Assembly: GCA_964016885.1 (NCBI GenBank)
Contig: OZ024740.1
Coordinates: forward strand, 141,856,001 to 141,920,000
From: Eledone cirrhosa
Lineage: Eukaryota
Direction: 5' to 3'
DNA length: 64,000 bases
Shown: positions 5,104 to 64,000 of the stretch, piece by piece
How positions within the stretch are numbered: the stretch's first letter is position 1
Layout of the letters: the number at the start of each line of letters is the position of its first letter
Made by a program: the position numbers and the translations under genes
Notes under the pieces: model-generated
The model's database searches: none
What the model was told of the DNA's origin: nothing
Seen by the model: the letters and a program-made list of their open reading frames with translations, nothing else

Positions 5104-8100
5104 TTTTCTTTATTGGCCACAAGGGCTGACATCAAGAAAAACATTACAGATGGCACAGGACGGTACAGGACAGTACGATGTGGGTTTTGTGCGTGTAAAG
5201 ATTTTTATTATTTATATAAGAAAAGAAAAAAAAGGACATAGAAACATATATATATATATAAACAATAAAAATGAAAATTGAAACAATGAAAAATTCCCCA
5301 ATAGGAGGGAAACCTCTGAGGGTTACTCGTGGCGAAAACCACACAAAAGACCACGGCCACCCTGACCACCAGGGCAAGCGCCCTCTCTCAATTTTTCCAT
5401 TTCTCAAACTACAGGCGTATATTCAGAGCGGCCCCGTTTACTCGGACCATTCTCGCTACATTCACCCATCTTTCAACAAACTTGTTAGAATGCAGCACTT
5501 GCCTCTCCACCCTGATTTTCCTTTTCAAGTGAAACTTGAAAAAGTTAATTAGGGATTCGCCGAAGAGGAAAGTATCTGTCTTTAACCCTTTCAACATTGT
5601 CCAACACACAATCTCTTTCGCCATGGCCACCAGGCAGATGAAAACCGCCTGCCCTTCCTCCTCGAAGGAAGACGGCGAGACCATCTGCACAATAGACTCA
5701 GTCGATAACTGGATCAGTACCACACGCGACAGCAACTGTTCAACATAGCTCCACAAGTTAGCAATGCTCGAACATTGAACGAGTGCATGCACGACGGTTT
5801 CGTCGCTCTGCGCGCATCTCGGACTGGCTCTGCTGACGGCACTTCCGTGCCTGTAGAGCTTATCTTGAACCGGCAATGCCCCCGGTAGCACTGCCAGGCC
5901 AGGGATTTCTGGAAGTTATCCATAGGCCCTGGGCTGAAAGTTCTCCGGAAGAGAGCAAACCGCTGATCTTCTTCGACGCCCAGGATCTCTCCGAAAAGGT
6001 GGTCTCTCTTCTCCTCCATTAGTCCTCAATAGAACGCCGAGGTGGATGTTCCACCGATACTGGTGCCCAGCTGGCAGAGGGCAGTGAGCACCTGGAGACA
6101 TTCCAGTTTCCAAGCGCTATCCCTCGGTCTTTTCCTGACCCAGGACTGCAGGCCCATTTCTGAGTGAGGGAGGCCACCTTGCTCGTCACCTCCCTCCAGT
6201 TTTTCTCCATCTGGAGGTCCGGTCCGAACCAGACCCCGAGCAATTTAACAGGTCCGTCCGTCCTACGCCCCACGACGCTGTCGGACGGCATGGACTTGCC
6301 TCTCCAGGTGCCGAGCTGCAAGCCCACCGACTTTTCCTGGTTTATTTTTGCTCCTGTCACCGCTTCGTATTCCTTGAGAGCGGTGCCGAGCACCTGGACG
6401 TGTCTGGTGCTCGACACCACCACGGTAATGTCGTCGGCGGAAGCCGACTCGGATTTCCCGCATCCTAGTTCGCGTGTGTGCAAGTAACGGCTCGAGAGTC
6501 AATACGTACAAGAGGGACGAGAAGGGACAACCCTGGCGGACCGAGCGCACGATGCTGAACGGCTGCGACAGGTGACCGTTCACCCTCACAATTGAGCAGA
6601 TGTTGCTGTACATCGCAGCGATCCAACCCCTGAAAACGGGCCCGAAACCGGCTGCCTCGAGGACCGCCGCCAGGTACCGATGGTCGACCCTATCGAATGC
6701 TTTGGATTGATCCAAGTTGATCAGGCCCCACCCGTGCCAGGTTCCTTGACCACCCTCTCTATTATGTATCGCATGAGTTGGAGGCTGTCGTGTATGGATA
6801 TGTCCGGAATGGGACATGTCTGCGCCTCTCACACCAGACCCTTGACGACAAGCGCCAACCCCGTTGCTAACACCTTGGCCAAAATATTGAACTCTGCGTT
6901 TAGCAGGGTTATGGGCCTGAAGTTATCGATAACATCCCCCTTGTTCGGGTCTTTTCTCAGCAGCCCCACCGCTCCCCAGCTCACAAAACTGGGAATGCTC
7001 CCGTTCTGCTGCCAGTTGCAGTAGACGTCTGCCAAGAGGTCACCGAACAAGTCTGGCATAAATGCATAAAGCTCGCAGGGCAGACCATCCAAACCTGGCG
7101 ATTTACCCCTCATGCAGTTAGCCATCGCTTCCCGTATTTCACCGGCTGTTATTGGCTTTTCGCAACACTGTACTGCGGTCATCGAGAGCCGAGGCAGTCC
7201 GTCGCGGTATGCACTGAAATCCATACCCCGATCCGGCCCGTTGCTGCTCCGGAACAGTTCAGCAAAGTGCTGCTGAAAAGCTTCACACATCTGCTCGGGT
7301 TGGAGCAACACGCGCCCGTTTTGATCAGATAAAGACCGAATTGTGGCTTTGTTGCCACGTCGCGGCTCTGCCACCTGGGCCCATTGGTCGGCTTTTGTTC
7401 CCTCGTGTTTCAGAGCTCTAGCTCTGACAACGCAGCCTTCGTGTTTTGCGTTGAAGAATTGGTCGAGTGCCAATATTGCCGCAAGCACGTGGGTTGCGAT
7501 GCCTGTCCTAAACGCCTCTTCTAGCTTTCTGACTAGCTCTGCCTCTACTCTATTTTCTTCTATCACTAGTTCTTTGCGAAACCTAATCGACTCTACTTTA
7601 ATTACCCTTTTCAGGGCGAACCACCACCTGTTGTTGACGACCGCTCCCGTAACGCTCGCTTAACTAATATGCTAATCCGGTCTCTGTAGGCTTTGCGCGC
7701 CGGGAAAGACGCGTTCAGCTTCCAGTAACCGGGTCCTTGTCTATGAAGTCTGTCTATGTCGATATCACAGATCACACATTTGTGGTCTGTGTAGTCGACT
7801 ATTTTAAATTGTGGACAACTTATACTAGCCTTATCTAGTTCTCTGCAGAATACCCTATCGAGATACGATCTGGATGACCCGATGCGGTTTGTCCATGTCC
7901 ACATTGGCACATTCGGGTGATCCAGTCTATACCTGTCAGACAGTTCAAAACGTCTGAGCAGGTTGGTGAGGCTCTTGCACCCTCCTTTCTATCCACTAGT
8001 CCCACACAAAACCCGCGTGCATCCAAGATACCGTTCCAGTCGCCCACTAACACTAAAGAGCGGGACGTTCCAAGAAAGGTCTCTAGACGTCTGAAGAAAT

Positions 8101-10130
8101 CTGGCCGTCCTGTCCCTGCCGGAGCATAGACGGTTACTAGCCTGAAAGCGTTGCCTTCGGTGCCGCTTACATCCAGCACCACCGACTTACCTTCTGGGTC
8201 CAGGAAAATGGTCCGTATGGCGAGACCCAAGCCTTTCCTAAACAACACAGCCACTACGCTCCCCGCTCCCGGACGGATCGGAGATGCGTACACCTCGTAA
8301 CCGTCCAAGATCGGTGCGAAAGCTTGCGTTTCAGAGATTCTCGTCTCGCTGATGGCCACCACATCTATGTTTAGTGACCTCAGGTCGTTAAGCAAGTGAC
8401 CCTGCTTCCAAACCGAGCTCAAGCCACGCACGTTTACATTTCCGATCCTGAATATGGCCATGTTGGGTGAGGAACGGGGCAAGTGAGAAAGGATCACTTA
8501 CCTTGATCGTCTGCTGAAGGAACCGTTGGATCGTCCCTTCGGCTGGTCGTCGGCTCCTTTGTGAGTATATCCGACTATACTCTCCGGTTGAGTGTCCCTC
8601 CTAAGTCTCTGAAATCACCAACTGCGTTGGGGAATTCATTTTAATGTTTGTGTATTGTTTCTGTGATATCCTTACCAGTCTTATGTCCGTTGGTGTTTTG
8701 ATTGGTGCTGGTATTATGTAATCGTGCTGTGAAATGTCTGTGTGTTCAATTATGTAAGTCATTAGTTTCTTGTTGTGTATATTTATTGTTGTGCATTTCT
8801 TTTTCTGGGGGTGGGGGTGTGGTTCTGCTATTTTCTTGTCGTTGTTGCTGGGTGTGTGTGTTTTGTTGTTGTGTTTGCGATGTTGGTGCTTGTGGTAGTG
8901 TTGTTGAAGGTGTTGTTGTTGTTGGCGGTGGGGTTGCCGCCGGTGGTGATGGTAGTGCTAGTGTGGGTGGTGATGGTGTTGGCGATGTTGCTGCTGCAAG
9001 TCTCTTTGCTGTAGCCTTCACACTTTTTTCATTTCTTCCCTTCCTTTTCAAAGGCGACGATGTGCTGCTTCTACGTTTGTGCCTCCTTGCGACCTTTTTC
9101 CATCCCTCTCCCACGTCACACTCCATGTCCGATTCTGTGAGGTCGGGGAGGTGTACCAGCTCCACTCTTTCACTTGTTCTTGTTGGTGATGGTTGCAGTG
9201 GAGTCTCTGTTGCAGCTGCAGTTGGTATTACTGTTGTTGTTGTTAATACTTCCACTGCTGCTGCTGTTCTTGATTTCCGTGGCGTGGGTATGGGTTCCAC
9301 GGACCTATCCTTCCTGCTTGCCGCCTCTCCTGTTGCTGGTAGCCGTGGAGCCGGTTTCGGTAGGAGGGGGTTTTCTCTTTTCTCAGGGTCTTCTCATTGC
9401 AGAAGGCCCTGAGGTGAATAATAGACCCACAGGGAATGCATTTCGGGCGTTTGCCCTCAACACATCGAAGTCTATCACATCCTGGATAGCTTCGATGCAC
9501 TCCTGGTTGGTTTGAATTAAAATCTCAATGGACGCGCCGACCCAATCTTCTCGTACTTTTTTCTGTACTTGCAATATGGTTGTTTTGTCCTCGATTCCGA
9601 CAAGGACAGACGCGGCCAGCCAAGAAGGGGCCATCTCGGGGGGGGGACTTGGGTCAGTTTGACCCTCACAATGTTTACCCGCAGTAGGAGGGCACCAACA
9701 TCATTTCCTCGCTCCTTAGTGTTACTAAGGATTGAGCCTTTGCCTCCTGGGCTGTGGCAAAAAGCACGTCCACGGTGGCATATTTCTTGCCTCGGGTGAT
9801 ATGCGTGTTCCGTTGCCACACATACCCTAAGGCTTTTTGTATTTGAGCCTCTGTGGCTGTTTCAACTCTACGTGATTTTGTGCTTACTGTACGGTACGTG
9901 ACCGTACAGTGCTGTGGGGTTTCGAAAAATTCTTCGGCTGCCTTGCATATTGCTCGGTGTCCGGTTTTCGTCACCATCTTCCTTGCTTCCTGTAATTCCT
10001 CATTTGTTATAAGGATGGTTTCCAGGTCCTTTGCGATACCTGCAAACGAGATTCGTTTTTCTTTCTTGTTATTGTCGTCATATCCGCTGTTGCTGTTGTT
10101 GTTGTTGTTGTTGTTGCTGTTGCTGCTGCT

Positions 10131-10162
<32 letters not shown>

Positions 10163-10771
10163 TGTTGTTGTTTATGCTGCTGCTGATGTTGTTGCGGCTG
10201 CTACTAGTATTTTCCTGGCCACTGTTGCTGCTGCTGCTGTTATTATGGCCGCTGCTGCTATTCTTCATGACGTCAGACGAATGAAATGGCTTTCCGTATT
10301 TACCGCACACATCTTTCGTTGTTGTCGTCGTGAAGAAATGTTCCACGGAATGCGCGTTCTCTTGATGAAGAACGCTACGAGAAACTACATTTTCCTTTTT
10401 CTTTAATGGCGTCGCTTGCGAAAGAGGCGACAGAGGCGACACCACGTTTAGAGAAGGGAAGGAGAGAGACAATATTTTCTCTGACGTAATGACGATTGGG
10501 GAAGAGGAAGACGGAAGGAGTGGGAGTGACTTGTGAAAATTATTCTTTGTAGATATGTTTTTTTACAGTTTAAAATGAATATTGGGCGCAAATCCCCAAT
10601 AACTGGTTATTTAACCCCGAAGGGCCAAATAACGGGCAGAAAGACCCCTCTCACGAGGAGGAGGGTGTCTTTATCTACAATTTAGTTCAAGTTTTAAACA
10701 ATTTACAATTGTTATAACGGTTAAAAATTACAATATCTTACAGAGCCGAGCCTCCGTCAAACATGGCATTC
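5102..10771 (-). mobile_element. Full-span, mutated Tx1-like (L1 group) LINE, copy 1
   Basis: ORF1 remnants ~10472-8500. ORF2 has APE (NVNVRGL, ISETR, VGDWN, TDH), RT (FRPITLLN, DQSKAFDRV, RQGCPFS, ADD) and C-terminal ETVVHALVQC. AATAAA near the 3' end; (TTA)n at both ends. Confidence 0.92.
5409..8497 (-). pseudogene. Tx1-like ORF2 (APE-RT-Zn finger), frameshifted
   Basis: Split among ORFs 7835-8497, 7611-7910, 6829-7566, 6263-6832, 6019-6483, 5714-6019 and 5409-5891. Confidence 0.9.
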
Positions 10772-10827
<56 letters not shown>

Positions 10828-10829
<2 letters not shown>

Positions 10830-11130
10830 GGTAGAAAATTAACCGATACCAGAACTTAAAGTGGGAGTTAAAAAGGATTTGGAACTGCCATGAAATCAAG
10901 GTCGTCCCGATTGTCATAGGCGCACTAGATACTATCCCAAAGAGTTTCCAAGGATGGTTAAAGAAGATTAGACCAGCCCCTCTTTTTGGAACACTTCAAA
11001 AGGCATGCTTGCTGAGAACATCAAGAACCCTCCGATACGTCCTGAATATCTGAGGCTGCAGGTAGCGGCTTGATATTCATTTCAACAAATTTTCCAGTTA
11101 AATAACATCAATGAATGAGACTCAAAGAAC
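10828..11130 (+). mobile_element. 3' fragment of a diverged RLE family-A subfamily
   Basis: Similar to 15036-15335 with more substitutions; (TAA)n flanks. Confidence 0.88.
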
Positions 11131-11193
<63 letters not shown>

Positions 11194-11195
<2 letters not shown>

Positions 11196-11338
11196 TTTCA
11201 TTTATTAGCCACAAGGGCCGACATGTAGGGGACAATACAAAGACAGGGACAGTGGGGGTTTACAATAAGGTCGAGTAAAAGTGCACAATGGCAAGACTAA
11301 TTTAACAATGAAAATATAAAAATATAAAATAAACTATG

Positions 11339-11340
<2 letters not shown>
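11194..11340 (-). mobile_element. Tx1-like 3' tip
   Basis: Minus strand CCCTTGTGGCTAATAAATGAAATC(ATT)n matches the 3' end of copy 1. Confidence 0.7.
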
Positions 11341-11385
<45 letters not shown>

Positions 11386-12273
11386 TGGAAAATACCCAGA
11401 AAGAGCTAACAATCCTGATGTTGACAACACTTTAACCCATCAGTGGTTGGCATCCTCTGGACTGAAATCGATGACTGAAGGACTGATTATATCAGCACAA
11501 GATCACTGTCTGCCAACAAAAAATTACCAAGCCAACATAATAAAAAATGGATGCAGCCCATTATGCCGTGTATGTAAAAAACAACCAGAGACCATTGATC
11601 ATATAATTTCAATGTGCAGTCCTATAGCTCCAACCGAATACCTAAACAGGCATGACAGAGCTGCACAATACATACATTGGATAATGTCAGCATTTTGACC
11701 TGCCCCATCAAAAGAATTGGTAGGAGCATCAACCACCTCCCATACTTGAAAAAGATCACATCTCAATCTTGTGGAACTTTAGCATCCAAACAGACCGAAA
11801 AATAGATGCAAATAGACATGATATAATACTGAGGGACTTTAAAAAGAGGGTATGCCTGCTAATTGATATGTCCGTTCCAATAGACAAGAATGTATCTATA
11901 AAAACATTTGAAAAATTGAGCAAGTATAAGGACCTGGAGATAGAAATTGGAAAAAATGTGGAAATTGAGAACTAAAACAATACCAGTGGTTGTAGGCGCT
12001 CTAGGAATGATACCTAAGGGGTCTAATGATTACTTATCGTAAATCCCAGGAAACCCGCGTATAGGAGAAATACAAAAGATAGTACTAATGGGAACTGCCC
12101 ATATACTAAGGAAGATTCTGTCAATATAAGTACATCACAAGTCTAAGCACCTAAAGATGCATGTGTGAGTATGTATGTTCTTTCTTGAACATGGCGGACC
12201 TTGTTGTCTCTTGAGGTCACTGGTTGTGACTTGGTGATAACTCGTATGAACATAAAGCAAGATAAATGCAGCT

Positions 12274-12274
<1 letters not shown>
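11386..12274 (+). mobile_element. 3' fragment of RLE LINE family B
   Basis: CRVCKKQPETIDHIISMC knuckle, RHD, NRHDIILRD..LIDMSVP..KYKDL, VVGALG; (TAA)n flanks; homologous to 55174-55756. Confidence 0.9.
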
Positions 12275-12360
<86 letters not shown>

Positions 12361-12362
<2 letters not shown>

Positions 12363-15340
12363 TCGGTTGACATCCTAAAGATTCGGTTGACATCCTAAAT
12401 TTAGTGGAAGATGAGTTGAACAATGATAGTGGGAGACCTATGAACCTAAGATTTGTAGACAGGAAAAAGTTAAAAGAAACAACAGCTAAGGTAAACAAAG
12501 TCATCCCATACCTTGAGGCGAGGAGTCTTCACCAGTGCAACAATATCCTCAAAGCAACAGCAAATACGGTGAGGAAACTACTTGGTATAAAAGCGAGAGG
12601 AAACAACAGACAAGAAAGAGCAGAGCCGTGGTGGAAGAAGCGACTGAGTGGGCAAATCGGGGAAATGAGAAATGACATAGGAAAGCTTGAGTCACTACTG
12701 AATGGGACACTAAAAAACATAGGCACTAAAAATAGACTGGAAATAAAATACAAAACTAGGAGTAAAAAGCTAAATATTATCATAGAGGAATTGAAGCAAC
12801 GCATTGTAGCAAAGAGTGCCAAAATCAGGCGATACGAGAACAGAGTCAGTCAGTATAAACAGAACCGCATGTTCGACAACAACCAGAAGATGCTGTTTGG
12901 ACAGCTTGAGGGGAAAGAAAGAGGCAACGACTTGATCCCTGGGGCGGAACAAGCTAAAACATTCTGGAGAGGAATATGGGAGCAGGATGTTAGACACAAT
13001 GCCCAGGCAGGGTGGATTGAGACAGTACAGAGGGAGATCGGTGAGCAGGCACAGCAACAGACTGATTTGAGTATCACAGTTGAAACTCTTAAGGGGCAAG
13101 CCAAAAAACTAACCAACTGGAAATCACCAGGCCCAGATGGTGTGCAGGGGTATTGGATTAAACATTTAACATCCCTCCACCCGAAGCTGACGGCCATGTT
13201 CAATGACTGCTTGGTGTCGGGTGAGGTGCCAGAGTGGTTGACAAAAGGTACCACAGTTCTGATAATGAAAGACCGAATCAAGGGTAATGATGTTACCAAC
13301 TATAGACCTATCACATGTCTGCCCGTAATGTGGAAACTGTTGACGAGCATTGTGTCTGAGGAAATCTACCATCACCTCCACACAAACAACTTGTTGCCGG
13401 ACGAACAGAAAGGATGCCGAAAGAAGTCACGTGGTACAAAGGACCAGTTGCTTATTGATAAGATGGTAATGGGGAATTGCAGGAGGAGACACACTGATCT
13501 TGCCATGGGATGGATAGACTACAGAAAGGCATTTGACATGGTGCCTCATTCCTGGATCACCAAAAGCCTGGAGATCTTCAGGGTGGCAGATAACATCAGA
13601 CAGTTGCTGGGCAGGAGTATGGGGTCATGGGAGACAGAGTTGACATCAACTGGAGTATCCTTGGGAAGCGTGAAGATCAAGAGAGGTATCTTCCAGGGAG
13701 ATAGCCTGTCCCCTCTGTTGTTTGTCCTTGCCCTGATGCCCTTGACCATTATGCTGCGAAAAGTGAGAGCAGGATACAAGTTGGGAAGGGGAGAGCTTAC
13801 CATCAATCACCTCCTCTTCATGGACGATCTTAAGCTCTTCGGGAAAAGTGAGAAGGAGTTGGATGTGCTTGTTGACACTGTCCGTATTTTCAGCAGTGAT
13901 ATATGTATGCAGTTTGGTATTGGTAAATGTGGAGTCATTGTGATGAGGAGGGGTAGGTTGAGCAGAAGTAACGGGATCCAGATACCAACAGGTGAGATGA
14001 TAAAGGAAATTGACTCTGAGGAAGGATACAAGTATTTGTGCGTTCTGGAGGCTGATGGCATAAAGAACAAAAAAATGAAGGAATTGTTAAGAACTGAATA
14101 CATTCGGAGAGTAAGGAGCGTATTGAAGTCACATCTGAACAGCAGAAATGCCATAAGCGCAGTAAATTCCCGAGCTGTGTCTATTATTAGGTACAGTGCG
14201 GGAATTCTGAGATGGAATGTTGCTGAACAAAAAGAAATGGATAGGAAGACTAGGAAGCTATTGACTATCTACAACATGTTCCACAAGAGGAGTGATGTCG
14301 ATAGACTCTACCTAAGGAGATCTGAGGGTGGAAGAGGTCTTATCAGCATAGAGGACTGTGTTCAGATGGAGAAAAACAACCTATACAAATACGTGACCTA
14401 TAGTAAGGAGCCAATGCTCAGAGCTGTACTGAAGGAGGGGACAGTAGGCCAGGGGATATCCAAGGAGGAAATAACATCAAGGAGGAAGAGCAGCCTTAAG
14501 GGAAAATCCCTTCATAGTACCTTCTTTGAGAAAACTGAATTTAGAGATCCACAGACATGGAACTGGTTGAGAAGAGGAGACCTCAAAAAGGCTACAGAAG
14601 GAATGCTAATGGCTGCGCAGGAGCAGGCCCTCAAAACGAAGTGGTTGAAGCACCATATCTACAAGGAGGAGGCTAGCCCACTGTGCAGGATCTGTGGAGA
14701 GAGAGAGGAGACTGTGGCTCACATTGTGTCCGAGTGTAAACACCTAGCCCAGACCCACTATAAGGGCTGGAGACACGATGTGATGGGCAGGGTGATCCAC
14801 TGGCACCTGTGCAAAGTAAACAATCTACCACATTCTGAGAAATGGTATGAGCATAGGCCAGAGGCGGTGATGGAGAACAGTCAGGTGAAGGTGCTGTGGG
14901 ATTTTAGGATACAGACGGACAAAAAACTGGAACACAATAGACCTGACCTGGTGGTTGTGGACAAAGAAAAAAGATCGTGCCTGATTGTGGATGTGGCCTG
15001 CCCGTTCGACACGAGAGTGCAAGAGAAGGAGAGGGAGAAAATTAACCGATACCAGGACCTAAAGTGGGAGGTGAAAAGGATTTGGAACTGCCATGAAGTC
15101 AAAGTGATCCCGATTGTCATAGGCGCACTGGGGACTATCTCCAAAGGTTTCCAGGGATGGTTAAAGAAAATCGGCCCCTTCACGCTTTTTGGAACGCTTC
15201 AAAAGGCATGCTTGCTTGGAACGGCAAGAACCCTCCGATACGTCCTGAATATCTGAGGCTGCAGGTAGTGGCTTGATATTCAATCTAACGGACTTTCCAG
15301 TTAACCAACATCAATGACTGAGATTCAAGGAATAACAATA
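12361..15340 (+). mobile_element. 5'-truncated RLE LINE family A (R4/Dong-like), young copy
   Basis: Uninterrupted 950-aa ORF and short 3'UTR; (TAA)n on both sides. Confidence 0.95.
12404..15256 (+). CDS. Non-LTR polyprotein: RT + CCHC zinc knuckle + restriction-like endonuclease (N-terminus probably missing)
   Basis: KSPGPDG, NYRPITCL, IDYRKAFDMV, GIFQGDSLSP, LFMDD, CRICGEREETVAHIVSEC, RHD, RPDLVVVD..IVDVACP..K..RY. Confidence 0.93.
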   Translation: MEDELNNDSGRPMNLRFVDRKKLKETTAKVNKVIPYLEARSLHQCNNILKATANTVRKLLGIKARGNNRQERAEPWWKKRLSGQIGEMRNDIGKLESLLNGTLKNIGTKNRLEIKYKTRSKKLNIIIEELKQRIVAKSAKIRRYENRVSQYKQNRMFDNNQKMLFGQLEGKERGNDLIPGAEQAKTFWRGIWEQDVRHNAQAGWIETVQREIGEQAQQQTDLSITVETLKGQAKKLTNWKSPGPDGVQGYWIKHLTSLHPKLTAMFNDCLVSGEVPEWLTKGTTVLIMKDRIKGNDVTNYRPITCLPVMWKLLTSIVSEEIYHHLHTNNLLPDEQKGCRKKSRGTKDQLLIDKMVMGNCRRRHTDLAMGWIDYRKAFDMVPHSWITKSLEIFRVADNIRQLLGRSMGSWETELTSTGVSLGSVKIKRGIFQGDSLSPLLFVLALMPLTIMLRKVRAGYKLGRGELTINHLLFMDDLKLFGKSEKELDVLVDTVRIFSSDICMQFGIGKCGVIVMRRGRLSRSNGIQIPTGEMIKEIDSEEGYKYLCVLEADGIKNKKMKELLRTEYIRRVRSVLKSHLNSRNAISAVNSRAVSIIRYSAGILRWNVAEQKEMDRKTRKLLTIYNMFHKRSDVDRLYLRRSEGGRGLISIEDCVQMEKNNLYKYVTYSKEPMLRAVLKEGTVGQGISKEEITSRRKSSLKGKSLHSTFFEKTEFRDPQTWNWLRRGDLKKATEGMLMAAQEQALKTKWLKHHIYKEEASPLCRICGEREETVAHIVSECKHLAQTHYKGWRHDVMGRVIHWHLCKVNNLPHSEKWYEHRPEAVMENSQVKVLWDFRIQTDKKLEHNRPDLVVVDKEKRSCLIVDVACPFDTRVQEKEREKINRYQDLKWEVKRIWNCHEVKVIPIVIGALGTISKGFQGWLKKIGPFTLFGTLQKACLLGTARTLRYVLNI

Positions 15341-26300: not shown

Positions 26301-26867
26301 TCTCTTTCTCTTTCTCCGTCTCTCACTCTCTCTCTTTCTGGAAGATATCGACTGTTTAGACATAGAAAGTGATGGGCTCGCCGGGTTTATATGCCCGAGA
26401 AGCGCCGTATATCACAACTGCGCTCCCACTACTCTACCAGCAGTTCAGGTTCCATGGATGGTCCATGTAACACTAGGTCAAACCTAATAGAATGTTGTTA
26501 GTGGAACAGATGACGAAGTAGATTTCAGAGATCCATCTTCCCAGATATAACATTTCTCCAACTAGCTTAAGTATATCCTGCCATACTGCAGAATCAAACG
26601 TTACCTGTCTTATGATAAACAAGTAAGTTTCGGAGTACACGTTTACCATTATGGGCAGCAGTATGTAAATAAATAAAAAATACCTTATATATATAGGTGT
26701 GTGTGTGTGCATGTAGATTACCGAGTTGTGACGGGGGCAATCACAGTTAAAAAAGGCAGACATTCCTGGTGATTTCATACGAATAGAACAGTTCTAGTCA
26801 TGTAGAAGTCATTTCTGTATATATATATATATATTATTATTATGTAATAAACAACATAAGGCAATTA

Positions 26868-26927
26868 TTCCATTTACCAGTGGTTTCTTAAAAGCAAAAG
26901 GTTTTGCTTTCAATCCTCAGAATGAAA
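26868..26927 (-). ncRNA. Type I hammerhead ribozyme (mirror copy in E3)
   Basis: Exact reverse complement of 27001-27060. Confidence 0.8.
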
Positions 26928-27000
26928 AATCCTGGTTTGTTTATTGAATATGGATTCTAAAAACTTTTTAGAATCCATATTCAATAAACAAACCAGGATT

Positions 27001-27060
27001 TTTCATTCTGAGGATTGAAAGCAAAACCTTTTGCTTTTAAGAAACCACTGGTAAATGGAA
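27001..27060 (+). ncRNA. Type I hammerhead ribozyme
   Basis: TTTCATT-CTGAGGA-[TTGAAAGCAAAA cc TTTTGCTTTTAA]-GAAA-CC act GG-TA^-AATGGAA: 7-bp helix I, intact CUGANGA/GAAA core, GUA site (predicted cut after 27053). Confidence 0.85.
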
Positions 27061-27187
27061 TAATTGCCTTATGTTGTTTATTACATAATAATAATAATTA
27101 AGCTCTGTTGCCTACATAGAGCACTCTTTTTTCCTGGACTTTTCCGATGGAATTACTTCATTCACACACATATATATATATATATAT

Positions 27188-28593
27188 GTATTGAAATTTC
27201 CGTTGAAAACAGAAAAGGTCATAGAAGTGAAGAGTGCTCTATGTAATAACCAGAGCAAAATTTTATGTATAAAAATCAATACAATATAATTACCTCATTA
27301 CCAGAGGTTTCCCGAATGAGGCGAATTCGAAAGAAACGTCTTCATTCGTTCGTCAGACGAGGCAATATAAAACATGGCTAAATACTTGGAAAGTCTCATC
27401 AAGAAAAGCCAAAAAAATTATATAAATATAGACAAAGGAATTACAATAGCCATATGAAATATATAAAAATCTTTCAAGAAATATAGTTAGGTGTGTGTAT
27501 ATGTATGTATATACGCTCACAGATGTACATATGTGTGTATGTACAAATGTGTACGTATAGTGAAAAAGTGTGCGTAAATATATGTGTTAGGGCGGTGTAT
27601 CTGTGTATCTGCAACTACAGACAGACATGATGTGGTTGTCTGTTTAGCAGGTACACAGAAAAAACGGGGTATTAGATACATTATAAGAATATGAAGGCAC
27701 GCGTATCAACACACCCACACGCACGTACACTTATATGCGGAAGTAAAAGAGGTAAGGGAGTGTAATAATTAAAAGAAAGTATCATTCTCGATATATTTAT
27801 AAAAATGGAACAATAATTTAGAAAGAAAAAATTAAAGAAAAGAAGACAAACAAGGTACACGCGTACACACACACGTATATCTACAAGAAACGTATATCTA
27901 TAAGAAATATATATATATATACACGCAAAAACGTGCAGACAAAAGCGTATGCAAGCACACATACACACATAGGATGCACATATATACGCATATACGCCTC
28001 GCCCCATGTATATCTAATCACGCGCACGCACGCGACTGTATACACACTCGCACACACACACACACGCAAAAATATACATGCTTATATACATACGCACACT
28101 TACACATCCATACTTTCGGTACGTACACACACACACACACACACATACATACACTCACGCATATTGACCTGTTTACATGCACACACATAAAAATGAGGAT
28201 GTAAAAAAAGAGAAAAAACAAAACAAAAACAAAAAACATAGATGTAAAAACACAGATATAAAGACACATATACATACACATATATATATATATACACGCA
28301 CGCGCGCGCACATACGGCGGCGTTCGTGTACATATATAGAATGTATACACACATTAAGGCGTTCAGACACATAGATACAGGGTGTAAAAAGCTTTGTGGA
28401 TAAGTAAGTACAAATATAAAATTATAAGATTGGCTGCGAAATAACAAAAAATATCTGGAGTGGAAAACGCAAGTGACTTTGGTAATCAGTTAGTGAAGAA
28501 AATAAGGAAGTAAAAAGTGGAAAGTGAAGGTATTCGCCTCATTCGGGAAACCTCTGATAATGAGGTAATTATATTGTATTGATTTTTATACAT
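27188..28593 (-). mobile_element. Hairpin+tail element E4: 62-bp inverted arms (27265-27326 / 28532-28593), 1.2-kb interior, ~77-nt tail
   Basis: Arms differ by 1 nt; tail (27188-27264) is homologous to the E3 tail in opposite orientation; (TA)n flanks. Confidence 0.75.
27289..27366 (-). ncRNA. Type I hammerhead ribozyme (E4)
   Basis: Minus: ATTGCCTCGT-CTGACGA-a[CGAATGA...TCATTCG]g-GAAA-CC tct GG-TA^-ATGAGGTAAT; 10-bp helix I; first helix II pair is an A.G mismatch. Confidence 0.8.
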
Positions 28594-28606
28594 TATATAT
28601 ATATAT

Positions 28607-28800
28607 ATAGGAACGAGTAGGACCCCGACGGCTGAGCTCAAGCCGTTTGGACGGCTAATTCGGGTCCAGAATTAGCTGTCGAAACGGCTTGAGCTCAGCC
28701 GTCGGGGTCCTACTCGTTCCTATTACCCACTCTACTACCCTAAGTATTGAGTACTTTGGTGCGTTATGGTCCACCTGGTTCCTTACCACATTTCTTCCGT
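28607..28800 (+). mobile_element. Hairpin+tail element E5: 117-bp palindrome with the 3' half of a hammerhead + ~77-nt tail
   Basis: 28607-28723 is palindromic. Right arm reads [helix II]-GAAA-CGGCT tgagctc AGCCG-TC^-GGGGTCC. Tail GAGTACTTT at 28749-28757; (TA)n on both sides. Confidence 0.8.
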
Positions 28801-28877
28801 TATATATATATATATATATATATAAAAGAATAGAGACACATTCCTACTGACCGATCCCTCTACCACGAATTACTCTG

Positions 28878-55173: not shown

Positions 55174-55756
55174 CAGTTGCACTTATCTTGCTCTATGTTC
55201 ATACGAGTTATCACCAAGTCACAACCAGTGACCTCAAGAGACAACAAGGTCCGCCATGTTCAAGAAAGAACATACATACTCACACATGCATCTTTAGTGT
55301 TTAGACTTGTGATGTACTTATATTGACAGAATCTTCCTTAGTATATGGGCAGTTCCCATTAATACTAACTTTTGTATTTCTCCTATACGCGGGTGTCCTG
55401 GGATTTGCGATAAGTAATCATTAGACCCCTTAGGTATCATTCCCAGAGCGCCTACAACCACTGGTATTGTTTTAGTTCTCAATTTCCACATTTTTCCAAT
55501 TTCTATCTCGAGGTCTTTATACTTGCTCAATTTTTCAAATGTTTCTATAGATGCATTCTTGTCTATTGAAACAGACATATCAATTAGCAGGCATACCCTC
55601 TTTTTAAAGTCCTTCAATATTATATCAGGTCTATTTGCATCTATTTTTCGGTCTGTTTGGATGCTAAAGTTCCACAAGATTGAGATGTGATATTTTTCAA
55701 GTATGGGAGGTGGTTGATGCTCCCACCAATTCTTTTGATGGGGCAGGTCAAAATGC
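55174..55756 (-). mobile_element. 3' fragment of RLE family B
   Basis: NRPDIILKD..IDMSVS..KYKDL..VVGALG..ILRKILSI*; homologous to ~11690-12274; (TTA)n flanks. Confidence 0.92.
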
Positions 55757-55772
55757 TTATTATTATTATTAT

Positions 55773-58544
55773 TCCTTGAATCTCAGTCATTGATGTTAGT
55801 TAACTGGAAAGTCCGTTGGAATGAATATCAATGCACTATATGGAATGAATATCAATGCACTACCTGCAGCCTCAGATATTCAGGACGTATCGGAGGGTTC
55901 TTGCTGTTCCCAGCAAGCATGCCTTTTGAAGCGTTCCAAAAAGCGTGAAGGGGCCGATTTTCTTTAACCATCCCTGGAAACTTTTGGAGATAGTCCCCAG
56001 TGCGCCTATGACAATCGGGATCACTTTGACTTCATGGCAGTTCCAAATCCTTTTTACCTCCCACTTTAAGTCCTGGTATCGGTTAATTTTATCCCTCTCC
56101 TTCTCTTGCACTCTCGTGTCGAATGGGCAGGCCACATCCACAATCAGACACGATCTTTTTTCTTTGTCCACAACCACCAGGTCAGGTCTATTGTGTTCCA
56201 GTTTCTTGTCCGTCTGTATCCTAAAATCCCACAGCACCTTCACCTGATCGTTCTCCATCACCGCCTCTGGCTTATGCTCATACCATTTCTCAGAATGTGG
56301 TAAATTGTTTACTTTGCACAGGTGCCAGTGGATCACCCTGCCCATCACATCATGTCTCCAGCCCTTATAGTGGGTCTGGGCTAGGTGTTTACACTCGGAT
56401 ACAATGTGAGCCACAGTCTCCTCTCTCTATCCACAGATCCTGCACAGTGGGCTAGCCTCCTCCTTGTAAATATGGTGTTTCAACCACTTCGTTTTGAGGG
56501 CCTGCTCCTGCGCAGCCATTAACATTCCTTCTGTAGCCTTTTTAAGGTCTCCTCTTCTCAACCACTTCCATGTCTGTGGATCTCTAAATTCAGGTTTCTC
56601 AAAGAAGGTACTATGAAGGGATTTTTCCTGAAGGCTGCTCGTTCTCCTTGATGTTATTTCCTCCTTGGACATCCCCTGGCCTATTGTCCCCTCCTTCAGT
56701 ACAGTTCTGAGCATTGGCTCCTTACTATCAGTCACGTATTTGTGTAGGTTGTTTTTCTCCATCTGAACACAGTCCTCTATGCTGATAAGACCTCTTCCAC
56801 CCTCAGATCTCCTTAGGTAGAGTCTATCGACATCACTCCTCTTGTGGAACATGTTGTAGATAGTCAATAGCTTCCTAGTCTTCCTATTCATTTCTTTTTG
56901 TTCAGCAACATTCCATCTCAGAATTCCCGCACTGTACCTAATAATAGACACTGCGCTTATGGCATTTCTGCTGTTCAGATGTGACTTCAATACGTTCCTT
57001 ATTCTCCGAATGTATTCAGTTCTTAATAATTCCTTCATTTTTTTGTTCTTGATGCCATCAGCCTCCAGAACGCCCAAATACTTGTATCCTTCCTCAGAGT
57101 TAATTTCCTTTATCATCTCACCTGTTGGTATCTGGATTCCGTTACTTCTGCTCAACCTACCCCTCCTCATCACAATGACTCCACACTTACTAATACCAAA
57201 CTGCATACATATATCACTGCTGAAAATACGGACAGTGTCAACAAGCACATCCAACTCCTTCTCACTCTTCCCGAAGAGCTTAAGATCGTCCATGAAGAGG
57301 AGGTGATTGATGGTAAGCCCTCCCTTTCCCAACCTGTATCCTGCTCTCACTTTTCGCAGTACACTGGTCAAGGACAAACAACAGAGGGGACAGGCTATCT
57401 CCCTGGAAGATACCTCTCTTGATCTTCACGCTTCCCAAGGATTCTCTAGTTGATGTCAACTCTGTTTCCCAGGACCTCATACTCTTGCCCAACAACTGTC
57501 TGATGTTATCTGCCACCTTGAAGATCTCCAGGCTTTTGGTGATCCAAGAATGAGGCACCATGTCAAATGCCTTTCTGTAGTCTATCCATCCCATGGCAAG
57601 ATCAGTGTGTCTCCTCCTGCAGTTCCCCATTACCATCTTATCAATAAGTAACTGGTCCTTTGTACCACGTGACTTCTTTCGGCATCCTTTCTGTTCGTCC
57701 GGTAACAAGTTGTTTGTGTGGAGGTGATGGTAGATTTCCTCAGACATAATGCTTGTCAACAGTTTCCACATTACGGACAGACATGTGATAGGTCTATAGT
57801 TGGTAACATCATTACCCTTGATTCGGTCTTTCATTATCAGAACTGTGGTACCTTTTGTCAACCACTCTGGTACCTCACCTGACATCAAACAGTGATTGAA
57901 CATGGTTGTCAGTTTCGGGTGGAGGGATGTTACATTTTTAATCCAATACCCCTGCACGCCATCTGGGCCTGGTGATTTCCAGTTGGTTAGTTTTTTGGCC
58001 TGCCCCTTGAGAGTTTCAACTGTGATACTCAAATCAGTTTGTTGGTGTGCCTGTTCACTAATCTCCTTTTGTACTGTCTCAATCCACACTGCCTGGTCAT
58101 TATGTTTAACATCCTTCACCCATATTCCTCTCCAGAATGTCTTAGTTTGTTCCGCCTCAAGGATCAAGTCGTTGCCTCTTTCTTTCCCTTCAAGCTGTCC
58201 AAACAACATCTTCTGGTTGTTGTCAAACATGCGGTTCTGTCTATACTGACTGACTCTGCTCTCGTATCGCCTAATTGTTGCACTCTTTGCTACAATGCGT
58301 TGCTTCAGTTCCTCTATGATAATATTTAGCCTTTTCCTCCTAGTTTTGTACATTATTTCCAGTCTATTTTTAGTGTCTATGTTTTTTAGTGTCCCATTCA
58401 GTAGGGACACAAGCTTTCCAATGTCATTTCTCATTTCCCTGATTTGACCATTCAGCCGTTTCTTCCACCAAGGTTCTGATCTTTCTTGTTTGTTGTTTCC
58501 TCTCGCTTTTATGCCAAGTAATTTCCTCACCGCATTTGCTGTTG

Positions 58545-58546
<2 letters not shown>
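55773..58546 (-). mobile_element. 5'-truncated RLE family-A LINE, disrupted ORF
   Basis: ORFs 57280-58530, 56427-57377 and 55872-56414 are homologous to 12404-15256; (TTA)n on both sides. Confidence 0.95.
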
Positions 58547-58588
<42 letters not shown>

Positions 58589-58926
58589 GATTATTATTAT
58601 TGAATGCTATGGTTGACGGAGGCTCGGCTCTGTAATGTATTGTAAATTTTGACCACTATAACAATTGTAAATTGTTTAAAACTTTAACCAACTTGTAGAC
58701 AAAAACACCCTCCTCCTCGTGAGAGGTCTTTCTGCCCGTTATTTGGCCGTTCGGGGTTAAATAACCGCTTATTGGGGTTTTGTGCCCAATATTTATTTTA
58801 AACAAAAAAAACAACATGGCTACGAAAAAGAATTTTCATAGGTCACTCCCACTCATTCCGTCTTCTTCTTCCTCAATCGTCACTACAGCAGAGAGAAGAT
58901 TGTCTCTCTCCCTCCCTTCTTAAAAT

Positions 58927-60896
58927 GTGTCTCTCTCCCTCCCTTCTCTTTCGCAAGCGACGACAGAAAAGAAAAATCTCGTGCAAAGCGTGCAAGATTT
59001 CTCCACGACGACGACGACAACGACGAAACAGGTGTGCGGGAAATACGAAAACCCATTTCATTCGTCTGACGTCAGGAATAATAGCAGTAGCAGCCGTAAT
59101 AACAACAGCAACAGTGACAATGAAAACAACAGTAGCAGCCGCAACAGCATCAGCAGCAGCATAAACAACAACAGCATTAGCAGCAGCAACAACAACAACA
59201 ACCACAGCAACAGCGGCGGCGGCAGTAGTCGTAGTACCTGCAGCAACAACAAAAGTAACAGCAGCTCTGACGACAACAACAACAACAGCAGCAAAGAAAA
59301 ACCAATCTCGTTTGCAGGTATCGCAAAGAACCTGGAAACCATCCTCATAACAAATGAGGAATTAGAGGAAGCGAAGAAGATGGTGACAAAAACTGGTGAC
59401 GAAACCCAACAGCACTGTACGGTCACGTACCGTACAGTAAGTACAAAATCCCGTAGGGTTGAAAGAGCCACAGAGGCTCAAATACAAATAGCTTTGGGGT
59501 CTGTGTGGCAGCGGAAAACGCACATCACCCGAGGCAAGAAATATGCCACCGTAGACGTACTTTTTGCCACACCCCAGGAGGCAAAGGCTCAATCCTTAGT
59601 GACCCTAAGGAGCGAGGAAATGATGTTGGTGCCTTCCTACTGCGGGCAAAAAATTGTGAGGGTCAAACTGACCCCCCCCCCCCCCCCCCCCCCGGGATGG
59701 CCCCTTCTTGGCTGGCCGCGTCTGTCCTCGTCGGAATCGAGGACAAAACAACTGTACTGCAAGTACAGAAAAAAGTAAGAGAAGATTGGGTCGGCACCTC
59801 CATTGAGATGTTAATCCAAACCAACCAGGAGTGCATCGAAGCTATCCCGGATGTGATAGACTTCGATAACGGCACTCAACTGCCCATATGTGTTGAGGGC
59901 AAACGCCCGAAATGCTTTCGCTGTGGATCGAAGACTCATCTCAGGGCCTTCTGCAACGAGAAGACCCTGAGAAAGGAGAAAACCCCCTTCCTTCCGAAAC
60001 CGGCTCCACGGCTACCAGCAACAGGATAAGCGGCAACCAGGAACGATAGGTCCGTGGCACCCATACCCACGCCACGGAAATCAAAAACAGCAGCAGCAGT
60101 GGAAGTATTAACAACAACAGCAATACCAAATGCAGCTGCAACAGAGACTCCAGTGCAAACATCACCAACAACAACAAGTGAAAGAGTGGAGCTGGTACCC
60201 CTCCCCGACTTCACAGAATCAGACATGGAGTTTGAGGTGGGAGAGGGATGGCAAAAGGTCGTAAGAAGGCACAAACGCAGAAGCAGCGCATCGTCGCCTT
60301 CGAAAAGGGAGGAAAAAATGAAAAAAAGGGTAAAGGCTACTGCAAAGAGACTCACAGCAGCAACACCACCAACACCATCACCACCCACACTAGCACCACC
60401 ATCACCCCCGGCGACAACCCCACCGCCAACAACAACAACACCTTCAACACCACCACCACAAGCACCAACATCGCAAACACAACAACAAAACACACACACC
60501 CAGCAACAACGACAAGAAAATAGCAGAACCACACCCCACCCCCAGAAAAACAAATGCACGGCAATAAATACACACAACAAGAAACTAATGACTTACATAA
60601 TTGAACACACAGACATTTCACAACACGACTACATAATACCAGCACCAATCAAAACGCCAACTAACATAAGACTGCTAAAAATAGCACAGAAACAATACAC
60701 AAACATTAAAACGAAATTCCCCAACGCAGTTGGTGATTTCAGAGACCTAGGAGGGACTCTCAATCGAAGAGTATATTCGGACATACTCATAGAAGAGCCG
60801 ACGACCAGCCGAAGGGACGATTCAACGGTCCCTTCACCAGACGATCAAGTGAAAAGGGATGGAAAAACCATCCCTCCTCTACGAAAGGTACGGTAA
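58927..60896 (+). pseudogene. Tx1-like ORF1 (gag-like, CCHC knuckle, N/S- and P/T-rich tracts), broken
   Basis: ORFs 58927-59778, 59505-60029 and 60054-60896. Confidence 0.8.
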
Positions 60897-60931
60897 GTGG
60901 TCTTTCCCATCTTTTCCACTCTATTTTAAAC

Positions 60932-63900
60932 ATGACCTCACTCAGAATAGGCAGCATAAATGCTCGTGGCTTGGGGTCGTCATGGAACAGGATCACCTGC
61001 TCAACGACCTCAGGTCATTAAACATAGATGTAGTGGCCATCAGCGAGACCAGAATCTCCGAAGCACGGGCCTTGGCACCGATCTTCGGCGGCTGCGATGT
61101 GTACGCATCTCCCAGCCGTCCTGGATCGGGGGAAGAGTTGCTGTGCTTTTTCGGAGAGGTTTGGATCTCGCCATACGGGCCATCTTCCTGGACCCAGAGG
61201 GTAAGTAGGTGGTGCTGGACGTGACCAACGGAGACGGGCAAGCTTTCAGGCTAGTGGCCGTCTATGCCCCGACAGGAGCAGGGCGGCCTGATTTCTTCTG
61301 GCGACTGGAGACCTTTCTTGGAACGTCCCGCTCTTTAGTGTTAGTGGGCGACTGGAACGGGATCTTAGATGCACCCTGGGACTGTGTGGGATTAGCGGAT
61401 AGGGGTGGAGGGTGCAAGAGCCTCACCAACCTGCTCAGGCGTTTTGAACTGTCTGACAGGTACCGATTGGATTTCCCGAATGTGCCAATGTGGACTTGGA
61501 CAAATCGCATAGGGTCATCCAGATCATATCTAGATAGAGTATTTTGTAGGGAAATATATAGGTCTAGCATAGGCTGTCCACAATTCAAGATAGTCAGCTA
61601 CACTGACCACAAATTCGTAATCTGTGTGCTTGACTTAGATAGGCTTCATAGACGAGGACCCGGCTACTGGAAGCTAAACGCCTCCTTACCAGCGCGCAAG
61701 GCATACAGAGACCGGATTAGCGAACTAGTTAAGCGAGCGTTGACGGGGGCCATCGTCAACAACAAGTGGTGGTTTGCTCTGAAAAGAGCGGTTAGAATAG
61801 AATCCATTAGGTTTAGTAAGGCTTTAGCAATAGAGAAAAATAGAGCAGAGGGAGAACTAGTTAGAAAATTAGACGAGGCGCTTAGCAAAGGCATCGCGAC
61901 CGACGTGCTTGCGGCGAAATTGGCCCTTGACCAATTCTTCAATGCAAAGCACGAAGGCTGCGTTGTCAGAGCTAGGGTGCGTGCTCTCAGACACGAGGAG
62001 ACGAAAGCCGTTCAATGGGCCCGAGTGGCGGAGGCGCGTCGTGGCAACAAAGCCACGATCCGGTCTTTGGTGGACCACGACGGGCGCATGCTACTCGATC
62101 CCGGGCAAATGTGTGACGCTTTTCAGCGACACTTCACTCAGCTGTGCGGGGGCAGCGGTGGGCCAGGTCGAGGGATGGACTTTAGTGTCTACCTCGACGG
62201 ACTGCCGCGGCTCTCGGCCACTGAGGCGGAGTGTTGCGAAAAGCCGATAACAGCCGCTGAAGTAAGGGAGGCAATGACTGGCTGCAGAAGGGGTAAATCG
62301 CCTGGTTTGGATGGTCTGCCCTATGAACTTTACGTACAGATGCCAGACTTGTTCGGAGGCCTCTTGGCGGACGTCTACTGCAACTGGCAACAGAAGGTGA
62401 GAATTCCCAGTTCTGTGAGCCGAGGAGCGGTGGCACTGCTGAGAAAGGATCCGAACAAGGGGGATAACATAGATAATTTCAGGCCCATAACTCTGCTAAA
62501 CACAGAGTTCAAGATTTTGGCCAAGGTGCTAGCAAAGAGGTTGGCCCTTGTCGTTGGTGGTCTGGTGGGAGAGGCGCAGACATGCGCCATTCCCGACAGA
62601 TCCATCCACGACAACCTCCACCTCATGCGATACATCGTAGAGAGGGTAGCTAGGGAACGTGGCACGGGTGGGTCCTTGATTAATTTAGATCAGTCGAAAG
62701 CTTTCGATAGGGTCGACCATCGTTACCTAGCGGCAGTCCTGAGGGCGGCTGGCTTTGGGCCCGTCTTCAGAGGCTAGATCGCTGCCATGCACAGCGACAT
62801 CTGCTCTGTGGTGAGAGTGAACGGTCACCTGTCGGAACCGTTCAACATCATGCGCTCGGTCCGCCAAGGATGTCCCCTCTCGTCCCTCTTGTACGTATTG
62901 ACTCTCGAGCCGTTACTGCACAAACAGGAGACGTTGAGGGGCATCCCGTGCGAACTAGGATGCAGAAGATCCGTGTCAGCATATGCGGACGATGTCACCG
63001 TAGTGGTGTCGAACGCCAAACACATCGAGGCGATCGGCACTACACTAAGAGAATACGAAGCGGTGACAGGAGCAATGATCAACCAGGAAAAGTCAGTGGG
63101 CCTGCAGCTCGGCACCTGGAGAGGCAGATCCATGCCGTCCAACAGCGTCGTCGGACGCTGGACGGACGTACCGGTTAAATTGCTAGGGGTCTGGTTCGGT
63201 CCGGACCTCCAGACGGACAAAAACTGGGACGAGGTGACGAGCAGGGTGGCTTCTCTCACCCAGGAATGGGAGGCTTTTTGTGGAAGGGACGCGCTCCGAT
63301 GGTCAGGCGGTCCATCTGTTGTCAACACCCGCTACGTGGAGGGCTGGGCATGCCGTGGCTGATGATGCGCAGGCACGCGCTCAGGCTACGACATCTCCAC
63401 CTCTTCCTCGACGGTGATCAGGTGTGATCGCCGTTTGCTAGACACGTATTTCCCCAGCTCGTTTCCTTGACGGAGCTGCAGTCCTGGGTCAAGCGAAGAC
63501 CGAGAGGGAGCGCCTGGAGACTGGAATGTCTTCAGGCGCTCACAGCCCTCGACCAATCGGGCAATGTGATCGGTGGAAACTCCACCTCGGCGTTCTATAG
63601 AGGATTAGTGGAGGGGAAGAGCGACGACGTACTTGGGGAAACTCTAGGCGTCGACGAAAATCAACTAGCCAATCTCTTCGGAAGAACTTTCGGGCCAGGG
63701 CCTATGGACAACTTCCAGAAATCTCTGGCCTGGCAGTGCTACCGAGGAGCCTTGCCAGTTCGGGATAAACTCTACAGGCATGGAGGTGCCGTCAGCCGGG
63801 CATGTCCGAGATGCCCGCAGGGCGACGAAACCGTCCTGCACGCACTCGTCCAGTGTCCGAAAATTGCTGACTTGTAGGTTTATGTCGAACACCTGCTGTC

Positions 63901-64000
63901 GCGTTTAGGACGGATCCGGCTATCATCTGAGTCCATCGTGAGGATTGCCCCGCCCTCCTCCTTTAGACGGGAAGGGCAGGCAGTTTTTATCTGTCTGGTG
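60932..64000 (+). pseudogene. Tx1-like ORF2 (APE-RT-Zn finger), with stops and frameshifts
   Basis: MTSLRIGSINARGL, ISETR, VGDWN, YTDHK, NFRPITLLN, RQGCPLS, AYADD, CPRCPQGDETVLHALVQC. Confidence 0.9.

Follow-up and report, generated by a model that had tools for sequence, protein, structure and literature searches.

An Inverted Stub of a Hydra-Type Penelope-like Retroelement in Eledone cirrhosa, Probably Built from Two cDNAs of the Same RNA 5' End

Introduction

EN+ Penelope-like retroelements (PLEs) are described, in the available parts of PMC3846280 and PMC8557442, as leaving inverted 5'-truncated pLTRs with one-sided tails and junction palindromes. Both sources, in those parts, name the origin of the inverted repeats as unresolved, and PMC3846280 proposes self-priming. 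For the Anolis Poseidon protein, the available parts of PMC11167929 report that both strands are cut and extended in vitro, with two internal RT start sites, and that a dimer is predicted; the formation and joining of inverted arms fall outside the parts of that study covered here. An internal promoter within the pLTR is described for D. virilis Penelope in the available part of PMC2377424. In the literature searched, which excludes most subscription journals, we found no paper proposing or testing two-ended priming for PLEs. PLEs are the closest relatives of telomerase. In LINE-1 twin priming, both cut ends of the target prime cDNA on one RNA and the products are joined through microhomology, which inverts sequence without duplicating it.

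Here we analyze an insertion, E5, in a window of 64,000 nucleotides from Eledone cirrhosa (the whole stretch of DNA that was analyzed). Its structure is ordinary for a known class, and its layout is already published. E5 resembles the inverted pLTRs of EN+ PLEs in its head-to-head arms, its junction palindrome, the tail on one arm and its AT-rich repeat target, but differs from them in measuring ~195 bp in all, in having no ORF and in its at least 11,703 copies; its tail is 79 nt long, compared with 30-40 nt in the EN+ PLE insertions described. Unlike in LINE-1 twin priming, the same 60 nt would here be copied two times, with each cDNA extending to the 5' end of the RNA. E5 is also like the non-LTR retrozymes (available part of 10.64898/2026.07.22.740005), which are small, non-coding, PLE-related repeats derived from hammerheads; however, retrozymes are tandem units with complete hammerheads, whereas E5 consists of one inverted stub whose arms each hold half a hammerhead. 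What its family offers is thousands of independent junctions that discriminate between models of PLE inversion, and it names exact positions on the RNA (the 5' end, +39 and +118).

Results

E5 contains an inverted repeat at 28607-28723, with arms of 55 bp (28607-28661 and 28669-28723) on either side of the 7-nt spacer GGGTCCA (28662-28668). A sequence-only reading of the window had reported this palindrome, with its centre directly before GAAA, and we confirm it; the interval given there, 28607-28723, omits a one-sided tail of 79 nt (28724-28802) and the (TA)n runs on either side. As RNA, E5 folds with -111.9 kcal/mol (z = -18 against 200 shuffles). Its features are as follows.

28594..28609, no strand: (TA)n target, left side, from the sequence
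28607..28661, minus strand: untailed inverted arm; TAT is common to arm and target
28662..28663, plus strand: two G's at the junction, absent from the parent (TTA or TCA here) as well as from the left arm's continuation
28664..28802, plus strand: tailed arm, the 5' end of the element RNA (3' part of the pLTR), matching L228, a natural parent copy, at 92% over 141 nt
28664..28680, plus strand: hammerhead helix II, the 3' strands of its inner and outer stems, from pairing in 15 intact parent copies and the L196 fold
28681..28708, plus strand: hammerhead 3' half, with GAAA at 28681-28684 and helix III, with its palindromic loop, at 28685-28701
28704..28708, plus strand: predicted helix I 3' strand, preceded by UC with a predicted cut after 28703
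28724..28802, plus strand: one-sided tail between the two start sites, with a small bulged hairpin at about 28729-28752
28801..28824, no strand: (TA)n target, right side, from the sequence

On the 3' side of the centre, GAAA is followed by helix III with its palindromic loop, UC and GGGGT. Upstream of GAAA this copy contains no CTGANGA, and Rfam gave zero hammerhead matches across the whole window at E <= 1. The 5' strands and loop of helix II are missing; without these, the 5' strand of helix I and the 5' half of the core, E5 itself does not qualify as a hammerhead. Its arms depart from perfect pairing twice (G.G at 28649/28681 and G.T at 28653/28677), at the positions that the sequence-only reading had given and had used as an argument for helix II. 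Among 29 comparison loci, picked by likeness to the right arm of E5, the position of 28649 is C in all 29 and that of 28677 is C in 26. The mismatches are private changes and therefore carry no information on helix II, so that the positions stand and the argument does not.

The host site of E5 is a TA run located where a truncated hammerhead remnant belonging to another family (28532-28593, plus strand) has its 3' end, and a longer copy, with a CTGACGA core, lies nearby at 27180-27420 (minus strand). The window holds two further long palindromes, at 576-722 and at 26827-27101, the latter with a CTGAGGA..GAAA motif on both arms. It also contains ~719 copies of a 30-nt tandem repeat (~29850-51300) and inverted copies of one long repeat (~5600-15300 and 55300-64000), 78-97% alike in pieces.

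Seven of 30 unselected tailed arms extend upstream into a common sequence, that of the intact parent, which is carried by 3,397 arms genome-wide. The parent is a 3.5-kb Hydra-type PLE; head-to-tail units of ~3.54 kb exist, and the unit holds ~1.3 kb of 3' non-coding sequence. In L228 a single ORF, lying upstream of the common sequence, forms a stop-to-stop frame of 710 aa, whose motifs (YRDD and IY..YIG) correspond to RT and to a GIY-YIG domain at the C-terminus. Pfam returned no family for the parent protein at E <= 0.001, and the domain names are therefore motif-based. An ATG-opened reading frame begins 210 nt after GAAA, and the tail runs on into the ORF in 389 places. Head-to-tail arrays of the 3.5-kb unit, candidate source loci, are found at L292-L295 (G000:C1:91.47-91.49 Mb) and at C1:437.20-437.21 Mb. 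An early view of the family, as a stand-alone 150-nt SINE RNA with no helix II, was dropped once the parent was found.

Judged by its motifs, the parent protein appears to match the description of the Hydra clade of C-terminal EN+ PLEs in the available parts of PMC8557442. Like that clade, it combines RT with a C-terminal GIY-YIG, and it has DKT at 109 (instead of DKG), the CxCX5C linker CNCPDRSIC at 564 and, near its C-terminus, CxxC (CNLC, 662) and CxH (CKH, 690); the element shares the (TA)n target and the pLTR hammerhead. The endonuclease core is without the CCHH motif, having a single Cys between IY and YIG. Unlike the clade as described there, the parent has RWR (at 27 in L228) in place of RWK, a 3.5-kb unit where described members are mostly <3 kb, and a U3-A8 hammerhead core with a long helix II.

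In intact copies the 5' strand of helix I is followed by the core (T/C)TGANAA, a G, the 5' strand of helix II (CGGCTAT), ~30 nt that contain the inner stem, and then the E5-like sequence; the whole reads ACCCC-(T/C)TGANAA-G(C/T)TCGGCTAT.. with the 30-nt loop region. This is predicted to be a type I hammerhead with a U3-A8 core, a described PLE variant (available part of PMC4209133), and a long helix II. The U3-A8 core is present in 14 of 15 aligned copies (E5 excluded), and helices I-III pair in 14-15 of the 15 at most positions, with slight covariation because the copies are closely related. Unconstrained folding gave the three-way junction in one copy and not in three others tested. One subfamily carries C3.A8, and the core CTGAGAA, whose C3.A8 mismatch may weaken cleavage, recurs in many intact copies, among them L172 from the subfamily of E5.

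The intact copies bear on several claims of the sequence-only reading. It had placed the centre of E5 in helix II, and the sequence before GAAA is indeed the helix II 3' strand of a real hammerhead; its claim that the 5' half of the core was replaced by an inverted copy is likewise borne out. The left half of the central stem, which it had taken for the parental 5' strand, is instead the inverted copy. It had also predicted intact copies of the form GGACCCC-CTGANGA-GAC..; there are 77 matches to CTGANGA before helix II, none of the predicted form among those listed, and the 41 of the 77 that were read in context were junction inserts or neighboring elements.

Exact patterns found at least 11,703 long-form palindromes of the E5 kind in its own 3.0-Gb genome and 27,842 tailed arms genome-wide, and reversed-pattern controls gave 0 matches. 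A DNA search of the same genome returned 2,101 first-look candidates, nearly all of the scored ones sharing E5's inverted arm. Contigs from three sequencing runs also contain the family, and the parental loop sequence occurs in two other organisms. The same stubs are made by a sister family whose helix III loop differs (flank of L002).

For the junctions, 97 of the first 100 palindrome places were fetched and 95 parsed, from which two second readings of two-tailed copies were dropped (n = 93). The outer ends of the arms are fixed, at +39 and +118 after GAAA. The sequence immediately before the untailed arm is TATA in 82 of the 93 copies, and (TA)n stands at the outer ends in 82 and 83 of them. 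The untailed arm of E5 would represent cDNA begun at the inner site (+39), and the tailed arm cDNA begun at the outer site (+118). Small bulged hairpins lie just 3' of both sites in E5; in natural tandem units a bulged hairpin is clear after +118 in four of four and after +39 in one of four. As in Anolis Poseidon (available parts of PMC11167929), the putative start sites bound the tail and lie downstream of the hammerhead in the pLTR-ORF junction. Some untailed arms (L006, L030) end right at GAAA beside (TA)n, a possible third start site.

The inner ends of the arms are concentrated at one spot. Of 186 arm ends in the 93 copies, 172 fall within -6..+5 of the A of AGTCC, inside helix II, so that the inversion centers are non-random, as the sequence-only reading had anticipated; the untailed arm of E5 stops 6 nt before this hot-spot A. 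Its two junction G's are probably non-templated, and junctions differ from copy to copy: we found 80 different strings in the 93 copies (68 after trimming), and nine junction types occur in more than one subfamily. This diversity, together with the recurrence across subfamilies, indicates that junctions are formed anew at each insertion. Junction runs of up to ~18 T, as though A's had joined a cDNA end, were seen in L078 and others.

In the 5' direction the tailed arm reaches further in 45 copies, the untailed arm in 21 and the two equally in 27 (n = 93; p = 0.004). Under perfect pairing the spacer is 0 nt in nine copies, 1 nt in 15 and 2 nt in ten; a tetraloop snap-back would suit the 2-nt cases, for which reason these 34 of 93 with a loop of <3 nt are not all counted against fold-back. 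Genome-wide, there are 223 insertions in which each arm ends on the hot-spot A and carries one additional G, the two arms being separated by 0-2 nt. A single cDNA folding in cis cannot yield an untailed arm holding bases that are missing from the tailed arm, save by a flip of the spacer or by added bases; nor can it copy its own last base across a loop of 0-2 nt, save by a later flip or several fitting added bases. Flipped junctions, which may stem from later inversion of the spacer, number six among the 41 copies whose arms are identical and 15 among the other 52 (p = 0.14). The junction class of E5 itself is compatible with both two cDNAs and fold-back.

The same asymmetry is seen in longer insertions. 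Among 20 head-to-head long pairs, chosen because both arms were intact, exactly one arm is tailed in 19; the tailed arm is longer in 12 and the untailed arm in four (L232, L234, L238, L240), the remaining four being equal, two-tailed or interrupted. At seven of 20 further long-arm loci there is an untailed arm and no inverted partner within 5.5 kb. These solo untailed arms imply that the +39 end is the start of a first strand and not the end of a second-strand copy.

The two arms of an insertion almost always share a source: in the sample they are of identical subfamily in 81 of 93 copies, and the other 12 are one site apart (shuffled mean 18). Nine palindromes pair one subfamily B arm with one subfamily C arm, compared with ~1,670 expected from a shared pool if B and C, both young, were active at the same time. 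From this rarity of mixed palindromes, one RNA, or RNA of one source, would mostly have supplied both cDNAs. Other elements are joined head to head in L031, L058 and L033, which were chance finds.

Arm lengths are coupled. Among 23 short tailed arms the partner is short in 21, absent in two and long in none, whereas the 32 insertions with a long arm (38 places) have a long partner in 15 cases, a short one in one, only an inverted internal piece in four and none in 12; a short partner thus accompanies 21 of 21 short arms vs 1 of 16 long arms (p = 1.7e-9). This points to the end of a template rather than to a pause, because a pause made independently at helix II would mostly leave long arms with short partners. 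In junctions with both arms complete, the base added past the cDNA end is C in 1,758 and T in 359, although ~23 of 100 listed C rows can also be read as the parental TCAGT of the other arm; an enzyme preference for C at uncapped ends may be another source of the excess. An extra C opposite the RNA cap is established for other retroelements. The hot-spot site reads TTAGT or TCAGT, which is initiator-like. Among 30 ORF-linked upstream pLTRs, six begin at the hot spot, 17 keep the whole ribozyme and seven are cut elsewhere; the 17 imply that read-through RNAs or DNA tandems also exist. The hot spot is therefore likely to be a putative capped RNA start inside helix II. For an HDV-like ribozyme that would cut at the hot spot, inspection by eye found no clean P1 partner, and the idea was dropped.

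Discussion

We consider E5 to be a stub of a Hydra-type PLE in a TA repeat, and think it likely that its arms are two cDNAs of the same RNA 5' end, each primed separately and then joined head to head. In the mechanism that we propose, tandem masters would be transcribed from the initiator-like site (TTAGT/TCAGT) within helix II, and the resulting RNA would start with a capped A and be without the 5' half of the ribozyme. The GIY-YIG endonuclease would cut both strands within (TA)n, and each DNA end would prime reverse transcription at one of the two internal start sites in the upstream pLTR, which are separated from the 5' end of the RNA by only ~60 and ~140 nt. The templates would mostly be the same RNA molecule, or RNA of the same source. 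Both cDNAs would run off the 5' end, often with added C or A's; one cDNA end would anneal to or jump onto the other via 0-3 nt of microhomology, and each joined cDNA would be the template for the second strand of the other. Priming at the downstream pLTR would give the long head-to-head insertions by the same process. PLE RT is not known to have an RNase H domain, which suggests that the RNA would be spared for a second round of copying.

Two separately primed cDNAs are favored by the longer untailed arms (21 of 93 stubs and four of 20 long pairs), by the solo untailed arms (seven of 20), by the 223 double-G insertions and the spacers of 0-1 nt, and by the nine two-subfamily palindromes, the joins with other elements and the variety of the junctions. 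The two-strand extension in vitro (available parts of PMC11167929) and the pLTR promoter (available part of PMC2377424) speak for them as well, and the step of the RNA start is favored by the coupling of arm lengths, the excess of C and the six of 30 pLTRs that begin at the hot spot. Against this reading count the excess of longer tailed arms (45 vs 21; 12 vs 4), because fold-back in cis predicts it, and the near-uniform subfamily of the arms, because copying in cis explains it without extra assumptions. The trend of flips with age, the ambiguous C rows and the 17 of 30 pLTRs with a whole ribozyme also count against it.

In the sequence-only reading, the cDNA pauses at helix II and then, having snapped back on the complement of that helix, serves as its own primer. 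The centers do sit inside helix II, and self-priming is the proposal for PLE junction palindromes in the available parts of PMC3846280. However, a product of snap-back at helix II has to retain the parental loop together with some of the 5' strand, because folding is possible only once these have been copied. Exact patterns found one outer-stem and two inner-stem products genome-wide, three insertions that retain the parental loop, vs 11,703 palindromes (the patterns overlook mutated copies of both), and none among the 93 sampled copies. The arms end before the loop is reached, on the 3' strand, at a point where the cDNA still has no complement, 3,397 arms read through helix II, and the mismatches of E5 are private; we regard this explanation as very improbable. 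A different form of self-copying, in which one cDNA reaches the RNA 5' end, adds non-templated bases, folds back through microhomology and copies itself to +39, with flips arising from later recombination or replication slippage between the arms, seems to us unlikely and deserves more weight. It fits E5's own junction, the excess of longer tailed arms (45 vs 21), the near-perfect concordance of the arms and the weak trend of flips with age. Several classes nevertheless argue against a single self-copying cDNA: longer untailed arms, solo untailed arms, zero-spacer and double-G junctions, and mixed-template joins; in addition, the share of flips is similar whether the arms measure 55 bp or 0.4-1.2 kb. 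Such fold-back may account for a minority of copies.

It is about as doubtful that two cDNAs were joined but that the hot spot marks a cut in the RNA, or a block on each molecule by a folded or protein-bound helix II. The hot spot lies within a predicted stem, arm ends are spread across ~11 nt, and coupled arm lengths are also expected if the block belongs to each RNA molecule. On the other hand, the extra G is at a single position on both arms, the base at the hot spot bears an initiator-like motif, and the hot spot lies 4-5 nt within the inner stem, not at the base of the helix. That the family is a self-contained, non-autonomous palindrome copied whole from a palindromic master, with the hairpin tip mutated later, would suit the fixed outer ends and the very high copy number. 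Most copies, however, differ in their junction, junctions recur across subfamilies (the opposite of tracking phylogeny), and the geometry stays unchanged however long the arms are, up to 3.4 kb, so we give this origin hardly any credence.

The junctions of the family reject snap-back on the ribozyme helix and weigh against self-priming generally, including that proposed in the available parts of PMC3846280. Extended from E5 to PLEs at large, the reading with two cDNAs becomes tentative, with the balance slightly against it: PLEs would insert by copying one RNA twice, once per cut end, the joined cDNA ends would prime each other's second strand, and more than 11,000 stubs would record a capped start. 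If true, a single step, the copying of one RNA twice, would account for inverted pLTRs, tails and second-strand synthesis alike, and the position of the transcription start would disable the transcript's own 5' ribozyme.

As a separate observation, head-to-tail jumps to other elements or to the element's own ORF start occur at L041, L054, L066 and L280, and these jumps end at the same 5' spot.
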